64,000 bases of DNA from Raillietiella orientalis (taxonomy: Eukaryota). The notes beneath the pieces are model-generated. The model searched no databases and was not told where the DNA came from. It saw only the letters and a list, made by a program, of their open reading frames with translations. Positions 20,201-57,050 of the stretch are shown one piece after another (the stretch's first letter is position 1; the number at the start of each line of letters is the position of its first letter). Location: NCBI GenBank assembly GCA_036172245.1, contig JAYWIR010000003.1:4216001-4280000 (forward strand). Reading direction: 5' to 3'. The position numbers were made by a program, and so were the translations under genes.

Positions 20201-23200
20201 GAATGGAGGCTACCATTGCGTCTGCAGGCGGCAGCACTTCCAGGAATCCCGAGGGATCGTTGCGGAGACACCACGGAAGCGCCGGAAGGAACAGGATGGA
20301 AAAAGAAAGCAAGAGTGTCTGCAAGGATGAACGGGGGCACAGGCGGCAGCAGCAGCCAGGAAGAGGGGCTCAAACGGCAGCAGCAGAGGTCGAGGAGGCC
20401 GTATGGGGGAGCGGTGGTGACCCAAGCACTGAGACAAAAGGGCGGAATCCCGGGTCCTGTCTGCCTTCCTGATTCCTGCAAGTGCCTTAAACGGATCCCG
20501 GCCACCGGAGCCAAAGGTGCTCATTCCCGCCCGCGATCCACATCACTGCGGCGGCTCCCCGAGAGGTCGGAAGCGGGGCGCCGCTGCTTAGCAGCCCCTT
20601 AACTTCTATGTGATTCGCCGGCGATGTTCATCCCTATCAGGAGGTGATGCTCGTACTTCGGGTGCCGCCGCGAATGGACGGCGGCAGGAGGACCGCGTTC
20701 TCCGGTCGCTTCCCCCTTTTTTCGACACCTCGCCGGGAACACGTCCCCTCCCTCTCTTCCCTGCATTGGCTCGACCCTCCGACGCGTTCTCCGATCGGGT
20801 TAGGGGCGTGTCCCGCCAAGGCCATCTGGAAGCAGGTGGCAGACTCGGCTCTACGTCCACTCCGCTGGCCCCGGAATCAGCGCTTCCCCCCTCCTCCTCC
20901 TCTTTCACTTCCCCTTTCCATACGTCCTCCTCCTCTTCCCGATCCTTGCAGCGAAGACTGGCGCTTCGTGGACTGCGTTCCCAGGTGGTGAGCGCGTGCG
21001 CTCTCTCCTCCGAAATGAGACGCCTCTGGAGAAGACGGTGATGATCCCACCACTGCCAGTGAGGGCCGGGAAGCAGGGAGCTTCAGCTCCCATCGCCAAA
21101 TGGCTCTGCCTTGCTTCCGGGCGTCACGCGCCTCTCGCGCTCCCTGCGAGGAGGTCCTCCTACGCACCGCTCGCATCGCGCTGCTCCCTCCTCAGGGAAG
21201 AAGAGGGGCGGGGAGAGTTTCGCCTGCCCTGAGGTTCTCTCGGAAAGGCTGCTGCTCCTTCTCATCCCTGGCTTCCCTGAAAAGGGCGCGGGAGTCTCCG
21301 CTTGTATCTCGGGGCGCCTTGAAGAGCAGCAGGGAGCTGCCCGTTGTCCGGAACTTTGGATCGCTTCCGCTCCCGGGAAGACAGGGAACAGGAGGAGGAG
21401 AAGGGGACTGACCCTCCTGCTCGCACGGTCGGGGCCGAGAGAGCTCCTCGAGCGCCGCTGCGAAGGAGCGTCCCCGTCGCATGCTTCCCCCTCCTGACCA
21501 AAGGGCTCTCTCCCGGTTGCGGGACCCCGCAAGCGCCTTGCTCGACCGTCGCCGGCTGTGGCAGCCCGGACGTTCCCGCCGAAAAGAGCGGGAGTGTCCC
21601 TCCTGTGACCTCTTCCCCTTCCTCCTCCCTCCCTCCCTCCCTCCCTCCCTCTCCCCGTTTTCCAGTGCCGAAGGAGGGAGCACTCAGGGAGGGACAAAAA
21701 GAGGGAGGGACAGGAGGCTGAATAAGACGTCGGCGCCTCTGTCAGCGCGCGGACCGCCCGCTCGAGCTGGCTGATGGATGGCGCGAGGCGGTGTGGCGGT
21801 CGCGCACGCAGCGGCGATGCGCCGTCGCCTCAGGGTGACCAGGGCGGAGAAGAGGAAGAAAGGGGAGGAGGAGGAGGAGAAAAGAAGGGAGAAAGGGAGA
21901 AGGGGTGGGAGGGATGGGGGGGGGGGGAGAGGTCGGAAAGCGGGATGACACGGCGCGGATCCCTGCGAGCCTTTCACGCCGGTCGCCCCGACAATGCCGC
22001 CGCGCCCGGATCCCGGCGCTGCCTCTTTCGGCGAGGCACCGGCGGGTGATAAATCGCCCTGCTTTGTCCCCCCCGCTCGCCGTCGCTCCCGGCGCATGTG
22101 CTCTCTCTCAGCGGGGAAACAGTTGGACTTTCGGGAAGGGGGGGGGGAGGGGGAGGAGGAGGAGGAGGGAGGAAGGATGGGCCGGGAGGAGCTGACATTT
22201 CTATTATGGTCCTGGAGACAAACGATCCCGCGGTTCGATTTTTCGCTCTTTTTTTCACTCCTCTTTTCCCGATTTTTTTTTCTTTTTTTTTTGTTTTGCC
22301 GCTTCCTCGGGATCGATCCATCGGTACTCTTTTTGGAGCTTTGACGTCATCAAGCCCTCCCTCGATACCCGGCGGTGTGAGCGGCCACGGCGACGAGGAC
22401 AGGGCGGAACTCCCGCGACGCTGCGGCGCGTAGCAGCAGCAGCAGCAGCAGCAGGCAGCAGGCTGATCGCCGTTGTCCCGTCCTCCGAGGAAGGGGAGGT
22501 AAAAGGGGGAGAGGTGCATCCCGAAGGAGAGGAAGAGGCAGAGGAGAAGCTGACCCGACTGAAGGGGGAAAGAAGATGCGGTCCAGTCCCGGCCTCCCTC
22601 CGAGAGCATCCCTAGCGAGCGACACGTCCTCGCCGTCTCCTCGCTCCCGGGAAGTCAGCAGCCCGAAGGCCGCCAGCGGGGCCTCCGGGCAGGCACGGGA
22701 ACGAATCCCCTCCTGGAAATCCACGGCGAGTTCCTGCAAAGCGGAACTCGCCGTGGCGGGCTCCGCTTCCGGTTCCCATGGAGACATTGCCTGGGGGCGT
22801 GCCGGGAACGCGCAGACCGGAAGCGCCTCCAGCCGGGATGCTCCCTTCAGAGCGCCGGTAGAGCTCCTCGCCTCCGGCCTCCCTGGAGGTCCCTCCCTGC
22901 CTAGGATCCAGCCCTCAGGGGGGAGGGATGCCGCTGCTTTCGGTCCCTTTCCTGTCCCTCCGATCAACCGCGCGCGAGGGCCCGCCGCGGGTTAAGTCGA
23001 TGGAGTCGCGGGAACTTATCAGATCAGCATCGCCCGTTCCCATGGAGATAATCGTTCACTTTGCGCCGCGTGCCGTGTACGCACACACCTCGCATCGCTG
23101 GAGCCGGCGGGAAGGATCGGAGCCGAGCGTTCAGGCGACATGCAGCCTCCTCCCTCGCAGGAGCGGGAAGATCCGGCAGCCTCAACGAGGGCGGAGGCGG

Positions 23201-23285
23201 CGGGCGGGAGCGGGGTGCGACCAGAGGAGGTGCCGCGGGGAGCGAGGGTTGGCAGGGGAGACCTGGGGGAGGGGAGGGAAGGTTT

Positions 23286-23498
23286 GCGGCGGAAGCTCTC
23301 ATTCTTCATGTCCCTCGTGGCGGCGGCGTTCAGAGGGAGAGCAGTCGGTAACTTCACGCTTGGGGGCCGCTCTGAGGTCCAGAGGCTGCTGTTCTCTGTC
23401 ACGGGGGGAAGCTTCTCGGACTTTTGGCTAAGATCAAAGTGGGGGAAGCAGCCATCCCTCCTCCGTCTTCCCGAGAGAGAAGCAGGCAGGAAAATGAG
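23286..23498 (-). pseudogene. Decayed partial third copy of the hamlet-like gene (PLDLS region)
   Basis: Aligns without gaps to 27371..27546 apart from one 37-nt insertion (about 73% identity by hand count). Encodes [15 protein letters not shown] versus [15 protein letters not shown], with a frameshift and an in-frame TGA. Confidence 0.85.
23411..23441 (+). pseudogene. 3'-truncated U2 snRNA retrocopy (about nt 4-33) with target-site duplication GGGGGAAGC (23404-23412, 23441-23449)
   Basis: GCTTCTCGGaCTTTTGGCTAAGATCAAAGTG matches the U2 5' end with one substitution. It is absent from the homologous site in paralog A. Confidence 0.88.
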
Positions 23499-23504
23499 TT
23501 TGTC

Positions 23505-23730
23505 AGTCTTCTTCCTATTCCTCCTTTTTCCTCTTCCGTTTCTCTTTTTCCCTTGTTCTTCCTCTTTCCTTCTCCCACCTGCCTTCCTCCTCCTTCCTTG
23601 TTCTTCCTCTTCCCCTTTCTCCTCTTCTTCTTTTCCTCCTCCTGTCCCCTTCTCCCCCCTCCTCCCTTTCTCCTTCTACCTCCCTCCTCTTCTTTCTTTC
23701 CCCTTCTCCTTCTTCTCCTCCCTCTCTGCT
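23505..23730. repeat. Polypyrimidine (CT-rich) low-complexity tract
   Basis: Almost purely C/T on the + strand. It adjoins the third-copy relic where paralog A has its poly-Glu tract. Confidence 0.85.
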
Positions 23731-26651: not shown

Positions 26652-28158
26652 TCAGCTGTCCTTTCCTGGGGGCGAAGACCGGCCCCCAGCTGTCGCCCGC
26701 TCGGCCTCCGACCTCCCGCTGTCGCTGTCGTTGCTGCTGCTGCTGCTCCTTCCTCCTCCCGTTGCTCCCGCTCCGGAGGAGGCGTCGACGGAGACGCCTT
26801 CCCTTTCGCTGGCGCCGTGCTTCTTGCGATGCCTCTCCAGGTTGGTCTGCTGCCCGAAGCAGCGGGAACAGCGGGAGCACCGGAAGGGGCGCTCCTTGCG
26901 GTGGATGTTGCGCACGTGGCGCTGCAGGTTGGAAGAGATGCTGAAGCAGCGGTCGCAGTACTTGCAGCTGTACGGCTGCTCCCCCGTGTGGGTGCGCAGG
27001 TGGCGCGTGAGGTTAGCGGAGCGCGGGAACGCCTTCCCGCAGTACCGGCAGGCGTGGCGGCTCCTCCCGCGGCTCCGCTGGTCCTCGGCGCCCGCGGCGG
27101 CTCCGAACCGCAGCCCGTCCGGAGGGAACGGCAGGCCGGCCGGATCGGAGGGCGACGGGGGGGTGAGCGCGTGGAGGGCGGGCAGGCCGAACAGCGACGG
27201 CACCCGCAGGGCATCTCCCCTGCCCGGCATCGGGAAGGCGGGGGAGGAGGAAGGGTGGTGGAAGTAGGGGAACAGGGGTGGCCCGGGGGGCGGAACCAGG
27301 TCGGTCAGACCGAGCGGGGGCGGGAAGAAACGGTCCGTCGTGGGAAGAGCAGCAGGAAGCGGCGGCGGCGGCGGCGGGAGTCTCCTCTCTTCCTGCCCCT
27401 CGCGGCGGCGGAGGTCGGGAGGAAGGAAGCCGGGGGCTTCGCGCTTGGGGGCCGCGCTGAGGTCAAGGGGTTGCTGTTCCCTGTCGCAGGGGAGAGCGGC
27501 CGTTGCTCCCCGGTCTTCCCGGGCGGGAAGCGGACACGAGGAAGACCGCCTCCCTTCCTGGCGTCCGCTCTCCTCCTCCTCCTCTTCCTCCTCATCTTCC
27601 TCTTCCTCCTCCTCCTCTTCTTCGTCGTCCTCCCCCTGCCGCCGGTCTCCCGTATCCGCCGCTGCAGGGTCGCCACAGGACCTCCGGTGCTTGGCGAGGG
27701 AGGTGACGTTGCTGAAGGCGTGGCCGCAGCGGCGGCACGCCACCTGCACGCGGCAGTCGGCGTGCATCCGCTTGTGGCGGCACAGGTTGGAGAACTGCGT
27801 GTAGGCCTTGCGGCACACGTCGCAGCGGAACGGCTTGACGCTGGAGTGGATGTGCGCGTGCTGCTTGAGGCCGCTGGACGTGGCGAACGTCTTGCCGCAC
27901 CGGTCGCACGCGTGCGACCGCGCCCCGACGTGCTGCGAGCGGACGTGGCGCTGCAGGTTGCTAGGGTCGTTGAACTCGCGCCGGCAGAACTCGCAGGAGC
28001 GCTTCCGGTCGTCCCCCTGGGGTGGGCGAGGGAGGGGGGGGCCCGGCCAGCGCTCCCGCCACCAGGCCAGAGCACGGGACGCCTCTTCCTGCAGGCGGAG
28101 GTCATCGCCGTCGCCGCGACGGCGGAGGCAGTGGCGCTCCGCGAGGTGCGTCTCGAAC
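26652..28158 (-). CDS. ham: Paralog A terminal coding exon (end of finger 1, four N-cluster fingers, acidic tract, PLDLS, three C-cluster fingers, stop)
   Basis: Open frame extends ORF 26652..27818 upstream to the acceptor ctttgcccttgcag|g. TGA at 26654-26652. Confidence 0.93.
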
Positions 28159-30004
28159 CTGCAAGGGCAAAGGCACGCCCCTCTCCTGCCTCCGCTTCCT
28201 CCTCCTCCTCCCCACCCCCTCCTCCTCCGGAGGAGCCACCCTCGACGCGGAGGGGGAGGGGCAGAGAGGGAAGGGACTGCTGCTACTCACCTCCTGGCGT
28301 CCTCCAGGATTTCGTCGCAGAGGAAGCAGCCGAGGGAGGAGGCGGCGTCTCCATTGCTTGGCCGGCCTGGAAAGGACGGGCGAGGGACGCGTGAGCAGAG
28401 GGGGAGCGATCGTTCCCTCCCTGGAAGGGGAGAAGGAAGGGACCGGCCCGCTCTTCTCTCTGGCGGAGCCTCTGGAGGCAGGGCGCCGTGGAGCGAAGGA
28501 ACTCTCGTCCCTCCTCCTTTCGGTCCTCGTCCATCGCGTACGCGACGGGGAGGGGGAGGGAAGAGGAGCGGGCGGGAACACTTCGGGGTTTTCCCCTGGG
28601 CAGAGAGCACTCACCGGGGTGCGGCGCGCTGCTGTGCCGCTCTTCGGCGGCGGTGGCGCCCTCCGGCGCGGGTCTCGTCTTCTCCGCCTCCGTCTCCTCC
28701 GCTCTCGGGGTCTCCTCAGAGGGGGACACCTGGAAACAGGAAAGTTCAGGGAGCGGGGGGAAGAAATTCGGGAGCCGTACCTGTGCTCCTTGGTCCGCTG
28801 CTTCGGGGGCGTCTCCAGCCGCCGCCGCCGCCGCCGCCGCGGCAGCACCAGCAGCCTGCGGGGGCGTCAGCGCGCGCGCACGCTTCCCTGAGTTACCAGC
28901 GGCGTCCGGTAGGCGAGGGTCCGCCCTGCCCCGCAGCATCGCGAGCTGGAAGGCACACACGTGAGGGGGAGGAGGGGGAGGCGTGGCGGGGGCGCGACCT
29001 GGGAGGATCGCCTCCCGGCCGGAGGGAGCGCCCGCACTCCTCCCTAAGCGCCCTTTGACCTGTCAGTCACGATTACCGGCGGCAGCAGCGGCAGTCCTCT
29101 CCCTCCCCGTGCCGCTCCGCCCCATCCCCATATTCTCCCCACTCCCTTCTCGCCGAGGGACCTGCCGAACGGACTTCTCTCCTCTCCCCCCCCCTTTCTC
29201 TCTCCTCAGGGGGAAAAAGGGGGGAAGGACGATGGAGAGGGTGGTCTATGGGGAGAGAAGGGAAGAGGAGACTTCCAGCCTCCCCAGCCCAGTCCCTCTT
29301 TCGACAGGGGTCGCTTTCCCCCCTGCATGCCCCCCTCTCAGTCCCCGTGCCAGCCTCGCACCGCGATTGGGAGGGGCGGACCGGCCTCGGGGAATGAGAG
29401 GAGGAAGAGGCGACCCCCGCGCGAAAGAGCGTGGGGCGAAGGGAAGCCCCCCGCTTCACGAGCTCCCCGCGTGCGTGTGATCCTCTCCGCCTACCCTCGC
29501 GCCGTGCTGCGGGACCGCTCCTGCACCTGACAGCCGGTCCTCCCGGATAGGGAGGCAGAGTCCCTGCTCCCGGAGTAATCGGCGATTATCGGTCGGCGGG
29601 GCCCGTGGGGAGGCGGCGGCGACTGCGACATTGTCGGGGGGCCCCATTCGCGCGCCCTGCGTCCGGGAAGGCGGGCGAGGGTTAAAAAAAAAAAAAAAAA
29701 AGGAAAAAAAAAAGAAAAAGGAAGAGGAGGAAAAAAGGGGAGGAAAGAGAGAAAGGCAGAGAGAGAGGGAGAAAGGGGTGGGGGGGGGGGCGAAGGGGGG
29801 GAGGGAAGGAGAGAGACGAATGGTTCGCCACCGCCGTCGGCCGCCATTAAGCGACCGACGTTTGGATGCCTCTCGTCCAGGAAGGGGGGACAAAGGGCGC
29901 GCGGCAGATAAGCCGCGACCGACAAAAGGGAAAACGGGATTAGAGCGGAACGGGAGAGGAGAGAAGGGGAGGAGGAGGGAAGCGGGGAAAGAAAGAAGAG
30001 GAGG

Positions 30005-45705: not shown

Positions 45706-47152
45706 TCAGGGCTTTGTCTCCGAAACCTCTTCCTTCATGTTCTGGCCCTCCTGGGAAGACGGATCCTTCGTGACTGGTGGTGGTTCGGCGGAGTCCACCT
45801 CATGCTTGCGCAGGTGACGATCCAGATTGGTCTGCTGCCCGAAGCAGCGGGCGCAGCGCGAGCATTGGAAGGGGCGCTCCTTGCGGTGGATGTTGCGCAC
45901 GTGGCGCTGCAGGTTGGAAGAGATGCTGAAGCAGCGGTCACAGTACTTGCAGCTGTACGGCTGCTCCCCCGTGTGGGTGCGCAGGTGGCGCGTGAGGTTA
46001 GCGGAGCGCGGGAACGCCTTCCCGCAGTACCGGCAGGCGTAGCGGTCTTTGCTCCTGGTGGGCAGGGGTTGCGAGGGCGGCGCTCCAGAGACCGTGCGGA
46101 TGCTGCCGCTGCCGCCCACCATCAGCGCACTCATCCTTCTTCCTCCTGGCACCAGCAGATCGGTCGGCAGACCGACGAGCCCGTAAGGGAAACCTGCAGC
46201 CGCGGCTAGCAAGGCCTCGGCCGGCGCTGCCGATGAGGGCGCGTGGGTGAGACCGACTCTGTCCTCCTCTTCTTCCTCCTCTTCTTCCTCCTCGTCCTCT
46301 TCTTCGTCCTCTTCCTCGTCTCCTTCTTCCTCCTCTTCGAGGCGATGCCTCCCTTCGCTGCTGAAGTTCTTGCTCAGATCCAGTGGTTGCAGCTCCCCGC
46401 CTGCTTCCCTCGGCCCCTCTTCGCAGTCCGAGGTTCCCTCCCGGTCGTAGGGGCACCAAATGCCTCCCTTCCTGCGGTTGGGCGGCTGGGAATGGACGGG
46501 ACGTTGCACCCCGGCGCGGTTATCCCGAGGCGTGCCCACTCCTGCGGCCGCAAGGGAGAATGCAGCGGCTGCGGCTGCGGCTGCCGGGACGGAGGAGGCA
46601 TCGCAGAAGCGGCGGTGCTTGGCGAGGGAGGTGGTCGTGCTGAAGACGTGGCCGCAGCGGCGGCACGCCACCTGCACGCGACAGTCGGCGTGCATCCGCT
46701 TGTGGCGGCACAGGTTGGAGAACTGCGTGTAGGCCTTGCGGCACACGTCGCAGCGGAACGGCTTGACGCTGGAGTGGATGTGCGCGTGCTGCTTGAGGCC
46801 GCTGGACGTGGCGAACGTCTTGCCGCACCGGTCGCACGCGTGCGACCTCATGCCAGCGCCTCCTGCTGACGGTGGTGCTGCGCGGACGGGATGCTGAGAA
46901 CGCACGTGTCTCTGTAGACTGCCTGGGTCGCCAAACGTCCTTCCGCAGCTCTCGCAGAGGTGCTGCGGCTGCTGCTGCTGCTGCTGCTGCTCGAGGTCGC
47001 TCTGGTGGCGGTGGCGGCTCCTCGAGTAGTGGTGCCGATGGGATACAGGGCGTAGTAGCAGTTGTGGCTGCCACGAGAAGGCTTGCGTGTACATCCCGCA
47101 GGGGTGCCAGTCGCGCGCAAATCCGTGACCCTTCCTCAAGTGGACGTCCATA
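45706..47152 (-). CDS. ham: Paralog B terminal coding exon
   Basis: ORF 45706..47151 (481 aa) with seven intact fingers, poly-Q, acidic tract and PLDLS. Acceptor ccactcctcag|t. Confidence 0.93.
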
Positions 47153-50100
47153 CTGAGGAGTGGTGGTGGTGATTGAAGGAGTAAGAGGAGCGGGAGGGGA
47201 GGTGTGGATTGGGGAGAGGAAGAGGGGGAGGAGGGGGGGAAGAAATGCCCTAGTGAGCTGCCCCCCCGTTTCGCTGCGTCCTGGTTCTCTCACCTTCTTC
47301 GTTCTTGCTGCAGCTTCCGGCAGACGAGGCACTTGGCGTCGGCGGCATCGCTGGCAGCTTCTGGGAAACATGCCGTCAGGGAATGCGTGCGGGAAGGGGC
47401 GGACTCCAAGAAGCGCAGGGTTCTCGATTCTACGTTACCTCCTTCTTTCACGCCCAGCGTCAACTCCTGGCGCTTCTCGAAGAATCCTGGTGAAACGTTC
47501 ATCCCATTGTGCTGCTGCCCAGCCCAGGATTCGAAGGGCTCCTTGCAGGGGAGGAGCAAGTTCTTCCTCTGGCAGATGCTTCGGATAACCTCGCAGTAGA
47601 TCTGCAGCGCCCGACGGTGAAGGAAGAGCAACGGCATCATCAAAATCCGTGTTCATCTGGAGACAACGGCTTTACCTTGAGGTTCTCTAGGTGGTCAGCT
47701 GGGTGTTTTGCGCCTGTCATCCATTCTGCCGAGCCCTTAGCGCCAGTGATGCTTCTGCGCTCAACTGGAGCCTCATTCATCTGCAAGGGGAACACGGGAG
47801 GTAGGCAGCCTTCTTTCCACGTTCATCCTCTTAGCACCCATTCATTCGCTTTACTTGCAGCCAGCCTCACTGCTCCAAAGTATTGAAACAGAGCACCGCG
47901 CTCTCCAAGAAGATACGTTAGCTCTTTGGAGCACTCTTGAGATCTGAGAGGTGTTGCACGTTTTCTCGCAAGGAAACTCGTGAAACGCTCACAGCAGATG
48001 CAACGCAGCAAGTAGCTAATGGTTTTTTCTTTCTGGTAGATGCACAGCAGGAATCAGGAATGCACCTTGATTCCAGTTCGCGTATCTTCGCAGAATCCCG
48101 AGAGGATCGGCGGAGCGTTTCTGATGATCCGGCATGTTTGAATGCTCGAGAGAACATGATTTGTCGAGAGCGGCGCGGACGCAGATGCAGAGTGTGGAGC
48201 TCGTGAAAGAGAGGGGAAGGAGGAGAAAGAGAGGAGGGGCATCTGAAAGAAAAGTCTGGAAGTGCAACAACTTGCTTAACGAGAAAACTCGGGAATGCAA
48301 GGCTCCCGGATCGACGAGCCGTGGCGGATTTTTTCCCTCCCTCCTGTATCCATTTTTTCCCCTCGCTTCCCTCCTCATTGTTCTTTCAGATTGCAGTGGC
48401 AATCTGGTTTGTGAGCTCCTCAGCTTTCCAACATGGAATCAGGACGATAGATGCAAGGCGGGACGGGCTATCCACAATAATTTCCCGGAACTGAATGGAT
48501 ACCTATTCCCATGCTCTTTGATAACCGAGTTCAAAACATGCCACAAGAAATTATGAACTGTCCGAGCACATCTTGAGGCTTACAGGATCATTGTTGGGAT
48601 ACTTGCAAGGAATTGTTGGAATATTTGCGAGGAATTGTTGCGATATTCACGGGGCATTGTTGGGATATGCGCGGAGCATTGTTGGGATACTCGCGAGGCA
48701 TTGTTGGGATATTTGCGAAGGATTGTTGGGATACTCGCGAACCGTTGCTGGGTGTTCGCAAAGCATTATCAGATCATCAACGATTGATCAAGAAATCGCT
48801 TGTAGTAAATCGAAATAAAAAGCCACTGAAGCCTTGTAGCTGCATGCGACAAAAATTTCCACAGAGTGCAAACAGGGAGGAAAGAAACATGATTGCTTCG
48901 GCTTAGATCTGATAATGAGAGACCTTGACGTTGTTGCGTGAGTGGTAATACGGTACAAGAGTATCAGAGTTGCTACGAAAGCACAGTGCCCCCAGATGGC
49001 GACTTCCACACATCCGTGCATTGAACACGTCCACCGAAAAAATGAGAGAAGTGACTCGTACGCGCGGCGTGATCGCAAATCTCCAGTCTTTAAGGAACTC
49101 ACGCTTCTCGACAAAGAGTTCTTGAACCTTCTCAGGAGCTCTCTCATTGCTCGTGTTCTCATCGGGGCCTGGTCTGGAGAATCCCTTCTAGAAATAAAGA
49201 AGCAAACAGCTTCTGCTGCCTTGTACGTGCGTGCGTCGAGCCTTTTCCGGACGGTTAGGTCGCGATTAGAAGATGTTGGAGAGAGGCTTTATTTTGCATG
49301 ATTACACGCTGTTCCTCCATTTTCGGTCCACAGGAAGATGAGAGATGAGACGAAGTCTATTCAACGAGAGTAGGAAACCCATAATGGGAAACATCACTAG
49401 CGAAGGATGGTCGCCAATGGCTGCTATTTGGATTCTAGTCCGAAATAGAAAGCGGGTTAAAGATTGACGGAAGGCTTAGCAATGCATCTCTGACCGATCA
49501 TGGACCCTCAGCCGCAAGGATTCGGCCTAGAAAGGCACCTCTGCCAGAAGATGCTGTAGAAAGAAAAAAAAGAAAAAGAAAATGGAGAGCCAGCAGATGA
49601 ATCTCCAGATTGTCGGGAGTCCCGAAAACGTCCGGACCGTACTTCGCTCTCTTGTCCACCACAGGGTGCCAGACAGTGCGAAAGAGGGACGAGGATCTCA
49701 CCGAAGATCCCGAATGCCGTAAGGGGCTGCAAGGTGACTTCTGAGAGCGGGCCGGCATAGCCATTCAGAAGCAGGGTTTCTACGCCTCGGAAGACGACCC
49801 CTGCAGTCCTCCTTTCAAGGGCACGATGTTCACAGCTAGGGGTGGAGTGTGAAGGAAGGAGCGAGGGCAGTAGGAGCGGCCGTCTCCCTTCCTCTCGAAG
49901 TTTCTTGGACGTCGGCCTGTGAGCCGAAGCGCCCGTGAATGTTGGAATCCGAAGCGTTACTTCGGCTGTGGGTCGGGGCGACTCGTCTGGCCCGGGAATT
50001 GCCAGAAGGCACGTCGGAGCCCGAGGTTCCTCCGCGACCCAGAGGTTCCGAAGAGGTCTCCCATGCTTGGCATCCCAGCATGGGGAAGGGCGAAAGGTCG

Positions 50101-51768
50101 CGTTCCGGCAAAGGGGATGGCGGAGGAAGCTCCCTTCCTTCCTTTCTCCCTGCTTTCCGCTGTGTCCACAGCCCCACATGACTGGGGGATTGTCTCGGGT
50201 TCCCTGCGGGAGGAGAGATCCATCTCATGAACGCTCTCCATCCTCGCAAGAACCTTTGGAAGGAGGGGGAGCGATTACCGTCCCCCTTTTTCTCCTCTCC
50301 TTCTGCTCCCTCCCTCCCGGATCCCGTGGCCATTTGGAGAGCGAGGAGGGAGAGGGAGAAGGGGCGGGCGTGGGTGTACGTCCGGGAGGTTCTTTCCCCT
50401 TTCCTCCCGCCCACCTGTTCGCGGGGTAAGGCGGGAGGGAGGGGAGGGGGGAATGTCGCGGACGCGCCGGAAGGCGGCGGGGTCGGGAGGTCGCCGCCGT
50501 GGTCCCGCTGGAAGGGAGTGGTCGGTCGCCCGGCACGCGCTCGCGAAGGCCGCGCGCGCGATGCACGTGCCGGGCGGCCGGCCGCGCACTCCTCCCGGAA
50601 CTCCCGGACTTCTTCGCCCCCGCCGACGGATGTTTTTTACTGCCGCCTCGGCGAGCGTTGCCCCGGGAGACGCTCCGTCTTAATCGCTTGTAAATAAGGA
50701 GCAGCCCGCGCTCCCTGACAACGCCAGGCGAGCGCCCGTTCCACCCGGATGCGCCCGGGGGACGTGCGCGCGCGCGTGGGGAGGGAGATCTCCCTCTCCT
50801 CCTTCGCCTCTTCCCGGACTCCTCCTCTGCTTCTTTCTCCTCCTCCTCCTCTCCCCCTCCCTTTGTCGCGGGGGAGACGAACTTTCCATCCATACGTCCG
50901 GAGCTCCTAGGCCGTCCACGGATCGGGGGCGAGAGCGGGAAGGGGGCAAGCGGAGAGGAATGGGGGAGCTTGCGGAGAGGCCCTCTCTCCTCACTCCTTG
51001 CCTTTCTCCTCCCCTTTCTCTCCCCCCCCCCCCGATCGATGCCCGTCCGTGCGCGCCACCGGGACGTCATCCCCACTGCAATTATGAAATATCGCGTTTA
51101 ATTATCCCGGGAGGGCCTCGCAATGCCGAAGGGAAGGAAAGAAGGAACGGGAGGAAGAGGATGAGGAGAGGGAAAAGCTCCGGGGGATGCCTCCCCCGCA
51201 GTGGGGTAGGAGAAGGAACTCCCTTAATCAGACCCGGGGACCCCTGGGGTCCGTCTCAAGGGCAAGGAGGGGGCTGGGAACGGGACGGTTTCGCGATTGG
51301 GGAGCCACCCTCAAGGTAGCCTCCCGGGATGCACCTCTCTCTTCGGCATTCCCTTCGGATAGCTCTCCTCCCGGAGAAACCTCCCTGAGGGTCCCTTCGC
51401 CCCGGTCCTCCCGGTGCCCCGTGAGCGGTAGCGGCTGACCGCCGCTTCCCCCCTCCCCTACTCGATGAGGGCTTCTGGATAAGGTCGGGGGCTCCGCATC
51501 CGGGAAGGGAGCCGAGGGCTTCCCGTCGCTGCCCCGTTCCCCGAAAAGCAGGCCCTTTCCGGGAAGGGCTGCGGTGGGGCGGGGAGGCTTCCGGCCCTTG
51601 CTGGGAAGAGACTCCGGGGAGAAGGTTCACCCCAGAGAGAGAAGAGGAGACGCTGACCTTCTTCCATAAAAGGCATTCGGGGAGGGGGACGGAGGAACCG
51701 TGGCCGCAGCTCCCCATAGGATCTACCCCGGGGTGAAGAGCGGCGGTGAAAGGGACGAGGGTCCTCAT
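45706..51768 (-). CDS. ham: hamlet/MECOM(EVI1)/PRDM16-family zinc-finger transcription factor, paralog B. Spliced model join(51768..51658, 47780..47676, 47601..47439, 47360..47294, 47152..45706), about 630 aa
   Basis: Same EVI1-type fingers and PLDLS motif, GT-AG introns with phases 0,0,1,2 matching paralog A, PR-like segments GSAEWM...[21 protein letters not shown], and AATAAA about 105 nt after the stop. The first coding exon is tentative; translation could instead start at ATG 47780. Confidence 0.8.
47294..47360 (-). CDS. ham: Paralog B exon carrying the first half of finger 1
   Basis: Acceptor gtttcccag|, donor ag|gtgaga. Splicing rebuilds [22 protein letters not shown] (C-x2-C-x12-H-x4-H), with the intron at the same position as in paralog A. 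Confidence 0.87.
47439..47601 (-). CDS. ham: Paralog B exon with the C-terminal PR-like segment
   Basis: Acceptor ctgcag|, donor gag|gtaacg. [17 protein letters not shown] resembles the PR consensus IYYRVxxDIxPGEELL. Confidence 0.75.
47676..47780 (-). CDS. ham: Paralog B exon with the central PR-like segment
   Basis: Acceptor gttccccttgcag|, donor aag|gtaaag, 105 nt open. Encodes [35 protein letters not shown]. Confidence 0.72.
47900..49800 (+). mobile_element. Decayed L1/Tx1-like ORF2 5' part, antisense within a paralog B intron, interrupted by a minisatellite
   Basis: [25 protein letters not shown] (YAPN..R..FF..IIxGDFN-like) and [11 protein letters not shown] (WKxNxSLLxDxxF-like) occur in order. 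Confidence 0.45.
48589..48770. repeat. 22-bp minisatellite, about 8 copies (CATTGTTGGGATACTCGCGAGG-like)
   Basis: Units start at 48589, 48611, 48633, 48655, 48677, 48699, 48721 and 48743. Confidence 0.9.
51658..51768 (-). CDS. Paralog B candidate first coding segment (within exon 51889..51658)
   Basis: Acceptor ctctgcccgcag| at 51890, donor aag|gtcagc in phase 0. [37 protein letters not shown] ends near a Trp as the PR first-half exon does, but similarity is weak. Confidence 0.45.
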
Positions 51769-55799: not shown

Positions 55800-57050
55800 G
55801 GTCGCGTGGGAGTCTGAGGGGAGAACCAGGAAGGGCACAAGGGGCAAACAACTGCTCTGCGTCCCTCAAAAATGGTTTGGGAAGTGGAGTATGCTGAACA
55901 GCTTTGCAGCTTCCTGGACGATCCCCTCCTCGTCGACTGGAACCCTCTTCCATCCTTTTTCTTGCTTCTTCCGCTGGATGTTGCCCCCGACCACGGGCTG
56001 CTCTCGGAGGGCTCTTGAAGAATCTCCCGCAGCTGGGGTCGGGTGGCAGCAGTGGCAGCACCAAGATGGGAAGGTTGAGCAAGCTGAGAGCAATGCTCCC
56101 GGAAGCTCCGAGGCTGTCCTTGAAAACCCCAGACGGCCCTAACAGGAAAGCTCTTCCCGAAGATCGTCCGGAGATCCTTCTCGAGGTCGTGGACACTTTG
56201 TCCTTCGGCATCTCAACGACCTTACCAAGCTTTCCCCGTTTCTGGACGGCTTTCCAGAGTCTCCACCAGTGTAAGCGAAAGGGTAGTGCGAAAAGGGCTC
56301 TCCGAAGATGATTCCTGAGTGACCACCGAGGGAGATGCTGGAGACGGAGCATAGAGCCGGATGGGAGACCAAAGAGCTCCACTTTGATCTTAGCCAAAGG
56401 GCCGAGAAGCTCCTGTGCTGTCTAAGGGTCTTCTTCTCTCAAGGACCGGGCAGAGGGTGGCTGGATTTTCTCACTTGCTCGGGGGACACAAACGGTGCCA
56501 ACTGGAGTCCCGGGTCTCCGCTACCTGCCTCGAGCTCGTGTTCGGTTCTCTGGCCTCGGAGTTCTAAGCAACCGAGTCGCCAGTGACCTCACAAGGCCTT
56601 GAAACCGAGGTCTCGGACGGCTCAAAACCACCTTCCCTTAAGCCCTGTCTTTTCGATTGCGTCATCACCCACAGATGCTGACGGGTGAAGAAAGCGCCAG
56701 GCAGCTGCTCGAGTCGCTGTCGGATTCGTCTGCGTTGATTTGCCATCTGGCGTTTCCTCGGATCATTAGAGCAGTGAGAAATTTGTCCATCAGATGGAAG
56801 TCCGAACCGAGCCACACTGCCCCAGGCTGGCAGACAGTAGTTATCCTCAGCTCCTTGCAGCGGAGAGCCAAGTCCACTCGACGTATCACTGATGAGCTGA
56901 ATGGATCACTAATCCTGAATGTGGTCCGTGTAGCGAGTGTGGCTCCTCCCCAATTTTCTGCGTTCAAGAGAGGCTGGTGGCCATCAGCATCTCTCGGGTA
57001 AGAAGACCGAAGTTCCTTCCGCTCCCAGAGGCCGAAGGATGCGTGCCTTG
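55800..57050 (-). mobile_element. Probable decayed non-LTR RT fragment hosting the second U2 insertion
   Basis: RGNARWQINADES...RQGLREG and SIALSLLNLPILVLPLLPP resemble RT and post-RT segments; similarity is weak. Confidence 0.35.
56380..56410 (-). pseudogene. 3'-truncated U2 snRNA retrocopy (about nt 4-33) with target-site duplication AGCTCC (56375-56380, 56408-56413)
   Basis: Reverse complement GCTTCTCGGCCcTTTGGCTAAGATCAAAGTG matches the U2 5' end with one substitution. Confidence 0.88.

Follow-up and report, generated by a model that had tools for sequence, protein, structure and literature searches.

Two dead 31-base copies of the U2 snRNA 5′ end, inserted independently within one 64-kb window

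Short matches to the start of U2 snRNA at two places in one stretch of DNA raise the question of whether they mark genes, members of a new mobile family with fixed ends, or dead retrocopies. The stretch that was analysed, 64,000 nucleotides long and referred to here as the window, has a G+C content of 48-67%. A 30-mer search allowing ≤3 mismatches recovered exactly two U2 5′ fragments from it, at 23411-23440 on the + strand and 56381-56410 on the - strand, and returned 0 matches in 100 shuffles; by blastn, the two loci have 33 bp in common and their flanks share nothing. Both searches thus agree with the first-pass annotation, which had proposed a second U2 fragment on the opposite strand with the same ends but a different flank and a different substitution. 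The two objects are dead 31-base copies of the U2 snRNA start, probably pasted in by reverse transcription, and are laid out with their target-site duplications (TSDs) as follows:

23411-23441, + strand: copy 1, U2 snRNA 5′ fragment, U2 nt 4-34, with one substitution (GGACTTTT)
56380-56410, - strand: copy 2, U2 snRNA 5′ fragment, U2 nt 4-34 (numbering with the extra A)
23404-23412, + strand: upstream TSD of copy 1, GGGGGAAGC (9 bp), of which the last two bases, GC, are also U2 nt 4-5
23441-23449, + strand: downstream TSD of copy 1, GGGGGAAGC, of which the first G could also be U2 G34
56408-56413, - strand: upstream TSD of copy 2, GGAGCT (6 bp), of which the last three bases, GCT, are also U2 nt 4-6
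56375-56380, - strand: downstream TSD of copy 2, GGAGCT, of which the first G could also be U2 G34

The U2 origin of both copies was recovered with an nhmmer profile of 44 distinct full-length U2 genes, which matched the two copy loci only, at profile positions 4-37 (E 6.9e-9) and 4-34 (E 5.1e-8), and found no U2 parts beyond the two fragments anywhere in the window. Aligned to the Rfam U2 model (RF00004), copy 2 covers positions 1 to about 34, has a single additional A, and scores 22.7 bits (E 0.099 in 3 kb), far under the gathering score because the piece is just 31 nt long. An Rfam scan of the window at the gathering threshold found neither a complete U2 gene nor any other RNA gene. Relative to the U2 consensus, each copy carries one private change within the stem-loop I loop (GGACTTTT for copy 1, GGCCCTTT for copy 2). 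In both, the U2 5′ end is nearly complete, with 3-5 nt missing and the alignment starting from position 4, and the 3′ end of both is AAAGT(G), at U2 nt 33/34 of about 190, with the direct repeat following directly. An A-rich tail and attached element sequence are absent from both copies. In the consensus structure line of Rfam, the fragment end falls in the unpaired stretch behind stem-loop I. Within this window, the fixed end point is an observation made on two copies (n = 2).

The direct repeats are perfect in both cases, 9 bp long around copy 1 and 6 bp long around copy 2. The AGCTCC duplication previously assigned to copy 2 is present on the + strand at both 56375-56380 and 56408-56413, such that the minus strand of 56375-56413 reads GGAGCT, 27 nt, and GGAGCT again. 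When the upstream and downstream flanks of unrelated U2 heads were paired to obtain a null distribution (698 pairings), chance repeats of ≥6 nt appeared in 0.86% of the mismatched pairings and repeats of ≥9 nt in 0/698. At least 28 nt of copy 1 (23413-23440) and at least 27 nt of copy 2 (56381-56407) are not derivable from the target. With unrelated flanks, private substitutions, and target-site duplications of their own, the two insertions are independent, as had been claimed.

For copy 1, the state of the target before insertion can be read from a paralogue within the same window, and three further features are needed to describe it:

27489-27497, + strand: empty site for copy 1 in the paralogue, a single GGGGAGAGC without a U2 fragment
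23242-23572, - strand: decayed third MECOM/hamlet-like paralogue, linker region only, with copy 1 antisense within it
26655-28286, - strand: intact, single-exon MECOM/PRDM16/hamlet-like C2H2 zinc-finger ORF, 544 aa

The sequence upstream of copy 1 has its paralogue at 27371-27492 (78% identity), and the alignment of 23270-23680 with 27355-27680 contains one 37-bp gap at the insertion point, equal to 28 unique bases plus one 9-bp repeat. At 27483-27501, the paralogue reads GTCGCA-GGGGAGAGC-GGCC, inside the intact zinc-finger ORF at 26655-28286 (-). It follows from this empty site that the A of the AGC preceding the U2 part belongs to the target, and thus that the U2-derived part begins between nt 4 and 6; since the whole copy 1 insertion amounts to 37 bp, there is also no element sequence beside the U2 piece. 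The third paralogue was recovered by tblastn in two pieces, 23572-23438 in frame -1 and 23412-23242 in frame -2, which abut the insertion, so that the reading frame switches exactly at copy 1. Copy 1 therefore helped break an already redundant gene paralogue. A CT-rich low-complexity stretch follows the third paralogue at about 23500-23700. The target resembles a 3′ splice site, having a polypyrimidine tract and CAG/G in the paralogue; this resemblance was set aside, as the strand concerned is antisense to the covering ORF.

Taken with the tailless ends, this structure makes it probable that both copies are tailless (Group III) U2 snRNA retropseudogenes, heavily truncated at the 3′ end, that arose by LINE-type target-primed reverse transcription begun inside U2. 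We infer an RNA intermediate, a LINE enzyme, and internal priming rather than the copying of a pre-cut RNA. In such a sequence of events, the target would first be nicked by a retrotransposon-encoded endonuclease/reverse transcriptase, and the freed DNA 3′ end would prime inside U2, in the single-stranded stretch after stem-loop I where the branch-point-recognition box starts. About 31 nt would then be copied toward the capped 5′ end, the cDNA end would be joined across the staggered break by 2-3 nt of microhomology (GC or GCT), and gap filling would duplicate 6-9 bp of target. The copies themselves are inert fossils.

The junctions bear on how the fragments were joined to the target. Microhomology amounts to GC in copy 1 and GCT in copy 2 at the 5′ junction, and to G at the 3′ junction. 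Bases shared at both junctions, together with the very short insert and the lack of a LINE remnant nearby (none among 301 window ORFs), would also fit a double-strand-break repair patch, in which microhomology-mediated end joining or template switching copied a U2 gene or RNA without any retrotransposon. However, perfect target duplications of 6 and 9 bp are a sign of staggered nicks rather than of end joining, and chance microhomology would not be expected to select the same two end points twice in an RNA of roughly 190 nt, which leaves a repair origin quite improbable.

Where priming is presumed to have started, target and RNA share 1 nt (G) with certainty, and 3/4 in copy 2 (GGAG versus GUAG). 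For the mammalian tailless class, the insertion site is described as matching the final 2-18 nt of the annealed RNA by complementarity (PMC5322556), and an overlap of 1 nt (or 3/4) at or below that range was counted against internal priming. The nick sites are G+C-rich, CACG/GGGGG and CACA/GGAGC (CACR/GG on the top strand, the slash marking the nick). On the U2 strand, CACR/GG...AGC is found at both insertion sites (23400-23412 and 56408-56420), and the empty paralogous site (27481-27497) reads CGCA/GG...AGC. This common pattern could represent a nick-site preference or mere G+C-rich composition, between which two sites cannot tell.

The first-pass annotation had described the window itself as rich in L1/Tx1 relics. 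That description was not supported: among 301 stop-to-stop ORFs of ≥110 aa compared with Pfam, a search that badly decayed, frameshifted relics could escape, 0/301 had a reverse transcriptase or endonuclease domain, and the only matches were to C2H2 zinc-finger families plus one weak F-box-like match. Other small-RNA fragments were likewise not found in the window by Rfam at E up to 10, a scan only weakly sensitive to 30-nt pieces because copy 1 itself is missing from its list, and ARAGORN found no tRNA in the window. The absence of a LINE from the window, the G+C-rich nicks, and the absence of any other small-RNA fragment were counted against the LINE-type reading. Weak matches to miRNA models cluster at 21608-21725, 28190-28281, and 50277-50464 (22-30 bits, far below the gathering scores); these probably stem from G+C-rich DNA that forms hairpins or is of low complexity.

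Tailless retropseudogenes of U2 snRNA were reportedly described by Schmitz et al. in 2004. Noll et al. (2015; PMC5322556) describe the members of the tailless class as ending at set places in single-stranded parts of the RNA and as flanked by TSDs; they favour internal priming as the mechanism, and their chief examples come from U2 and 5S rRNA. The same objects are treated by Doucet et al. (2015; PMC4476161), who place most human U2 copies among them, as Group III (formerly Class IV) snRNA processed pseudogenes. The two copies in the window have the 5′ snRNA origin, the 3′ truncation without an A-tail, the TSDs, and the single-stranded truncation point of this class. A further mark, a relaxed L1 present in the host and a TT/AAAA-like nick site, finds no counterpart in the window. 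Because the nicks are G+C-rich and 0/301 ORFs encode a reverse transcriptase or endonuclease, the copies are considered to work like the tailless class, with no L1 assigned as their maker. As the class has been reported only from therians, the anole lizard, and maize (8 copies), and according to the accessible part of the source, which names no invertebrate among its genomes, not from platypus or chicken (PMC5322556), an enzyme with relaxed template choice is assumed for the present host.

The first-pass annotation had presented the fixed end points as novel, which overstates the case, since a form of about 35 nt dominates the mammalian U2 tailless copies and occurs hundreds of times per genome in the material consulted from PMC5322556 and PMC4476161. 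U2 tailless copies number 246 in cow (93 per Gb) and 471 in dog (PMC5322556). Lengths of human U2 entries, computed here from the supplement of PMC5322556 for all 98 rows of chr1 and chr2 (24 + 74 rows; rows for chr3-chr8 and later lie outside the count), range from 30 to 58 nt, with 80/98 at 30-39 nt, 63/98 at 33-37 nt, and a mode of 35 (30 rows). Because 80/98 of these entries are 30-39 nt long, an end fixed near nt 33-37 is a known hallmark of the class, as far as the supplement rows counted here go. The window copies thus resemble mammalian tailless U2 in consisting of a 5′ fragment of about 31-35 nt that lacks an A-tail, is flanked by TSDs, and ends after stem-loop I, and also in that independent insertions have their end points in common. 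They differ in that the host is a non-mammalian animal, probably an invertebrate as the first-pass annotation supposed and without a close annotated relative, with an AAAGUG variant of U2, the TSDs are short (6 and 9 bp), the targets are G+C-rich rather than TT/AAAA as for L1, and the target/RNA overlap at the priming site is 1-4 nt. Outside subscription journals, no report of snRNA retropseudogenes in an invertebrate was found in the literature. The kind of object is therefore ordinary, and what is new is the non-mammalian host and the short TSDs at G+C-rich sites.

An inherited rather than regenerated end point would be the prediction if the copies descended from a master copy, either a self-propagating micro-element or the head of a SINE. 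The two have equal ends, and SINEU-3 of crocodilians is headed by about 32 bp of the U2 5′ end (PMC4494074). They also have an extra A in common (AUCAAAGUG): their sequence is GATCAAAGTG, against GATCAAGTG in the consensus of Rfam and in that of bovine U2. The distribution of this base was assessed by scanning metagenome contigs with a 20-mer ending in AAAGTG, which gave at least 122 matches at at least 121 loci. Among the matches listed, 80 of the 114 that were not cut by a contig end run on for ≥33 nt after AAAGTG as canonical U2, and the extra A is thus a native U2 variant in many eukaryotes. As a mark of a master copy it was rejected; as judged from sequence, it points to a non-mammalian host and not to kinship between the copies. 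Nothing is common to the copies beyond 31-33 nt, neither body nor tail is present, both substitutions are private, and U2 is stated in the literature consulted to have no internal promoter, all of which makes a master copy very improbable. The resemblance to SINEU therefore ends with the reuse of roughly the opening 32 bp of U2 and, for SINEU, mobilisation by a LINE; SINEU has a body, a poly(A) tail, and a Mariner target preference (PMC4494074), none of which was seen here.

The same scan was considered as a source of more TSD-flanked micro-insertions. Among the matches listed, 34 U2 heads stop ≤25 nt past AAAGTG, including 20/34 within 0-3 nt, a count that takes in two near-duplicate contig pairs and one satellite. 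Of the heads listed that stop within ≤7 nt and have enough flank (25 in all), 22/25 lack a repeat of ≥5 nt, and the 3/25 with such a repeat are two units of the satellite on contig L024 and a rearrangement on L098, so the contigs were rejected as a source. Because these 22 truncated heads have no TSD, they represent another kind of object than the micro-insertions in the window. Downstream sequence is common to several of the heads (L033, L055, L061, L099, L109, and L052), and the upstream flank of L120, which is interrupted right after AAAGTG, is that of an intact U2 gene in L067. On this contig evidence, the truncated heads resemble U2 genes, or heads of U2, fused to repeated elements, may be the 5′ junctions of U2-targeting elements, and show the stretch just behind stem-loop I to be a hot spot of U2 breakage or joining in many organisms. 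L024 (1-805) itself is a tandem array in which every unit is about 37 bp long and consists of a U2 5′ fragment from nt 5 to about nt 36; it is a U2-derived satellite reminiscent of U2_sat of Ciona, as that repeat is presented in the available part of PMC4640811.

It is owing to this hot spot that a pre-cut template was kept under consideration at low odds. In that case, instead of intact U2, the template would be a pre-existing short RNA that covers U2 from nt 1 to about nt 34, and would come from a U2 cleavage product or from the junction-processed, U2-promoter-driven transcript of a U2 gene into which a U2-targeting retrotransposon had inserted, the latter spelling out the by-product idea of the first-pass annotation. 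The identical final base in both copies, the 20/34 truncated heads that stop 0-3 nt past AAAGTG among the matches listed, and the interruption of L120, whose upstream flank is that of the intact gene in L067, are as such a template would predict, and the 5′ junctions of U2-targeting elements do differ among families (PMC4640811). However, zero element-derived bases lie between fragment and TSD in either copy, 0/22 of the truncated metagenome heads among the matches listed (L024 and L098 left out) have a TSD, and the window contains no reverse transcriptase or endonuclease remnant (301 ORFs). For human U2, the authors of PMC5322556 state, in the portion consulted, that they found neither truncated RNAs nor A-tailed truncated copies. 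A pre-cut template is therefore considered unlikely, and priming inside intact U2 is preferred.

The known U2-targeting elements also bear on this choice, since a link to Keno or Utopia had been suggested for the fragments. Keno (Tx1 clade) and Utopia (NeSL clade) have the same 3′ junction, with U2 resuming at nt 39; reptile families have 20-bp TSDs and arthropod families have none (Kojima and Jurka, 2015; PMC4640811). The insertion site of these elements lies a few bases from the fragment ends, and they leave U2 5′ heads beside foreign sequence; however, they insert into U2 genes and, as characterised in the source, do not scatter bare U2 pieces. Their junction at nt 38/39, not 34, is 4-5 nt past the ends of the fragments, and no element sequence separates fragment from TSD, so the suggested link was not borne out by the junctions, which also speak against a template processed from an interrupted U2 gene. 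Chimeric snRNA/LINE retrocopies formed by template switching (Group IV, U6/L1 type) are alike in that an snRNA is copied by a LINE reverse transcriptase, but, as far as the sources consulted describe them, they carry a LINE, SINE, or mRNA 3′ part, whereas here the TSD follows directly after U2.

The density of the copies invites a wider reading. Two copies per 64 kb correspond to about 31 per Mb, a figure from a single window chosen as interesting and thus no basis for extrapolation, whereas “perfect” U2 tailless copies in cow and dog are put at 0.09-0.34 per Mb (PMC5322556). A dense population of fixed-end U2 micro-retrocopies, at tens per Mb or about 100 times the cow and dog values, made by a LINE which is not the therian L1, has its nick sites in G+C-rich sequence, and begins reverse transcription in the U2 branch-point box, seems doubtful at present. 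If it were true, the relaxation of template choice hitherto linked with therian L1 would have arisen independently, and U2 would be the preferred bystander template of that LINE. Short snRNA fossils have been used as a marker of a “relaxed” L1 reverse transcriptase (PMC5322556), and the occurrence of clean copies at G+C-rich targets in an unrelated animal suggests one of two things: initiation inside U2 is also within the reach of another LINE lineage, or it is U2 itself, rather than the enzyme, that sets the end point. Annotators should read a 31-nt match to U2 flanked by direct repeats as a dead retrocopy, neither a gene nor a new mobile element.

The zinc-finger ORF that contains the empty site has a relative in the window:

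45709-47289, - strand: intact, single-exon MECOM/PRDM16/hamlet-like C2H2 zinc-finger ORF, 527 aa

The 544-aa and 527-aa ORFs are about 80% identical over their finger clusters. For the 527-aa ORF, no near-identical protein was present among database proteins of 289-923 and 924-2635 residues; its best long matches, in tick, beetle, and moth, have 39-42% identity over 75-90% of the ORF, and the zinc fingers alone reach up to 72% identity in many phyla.
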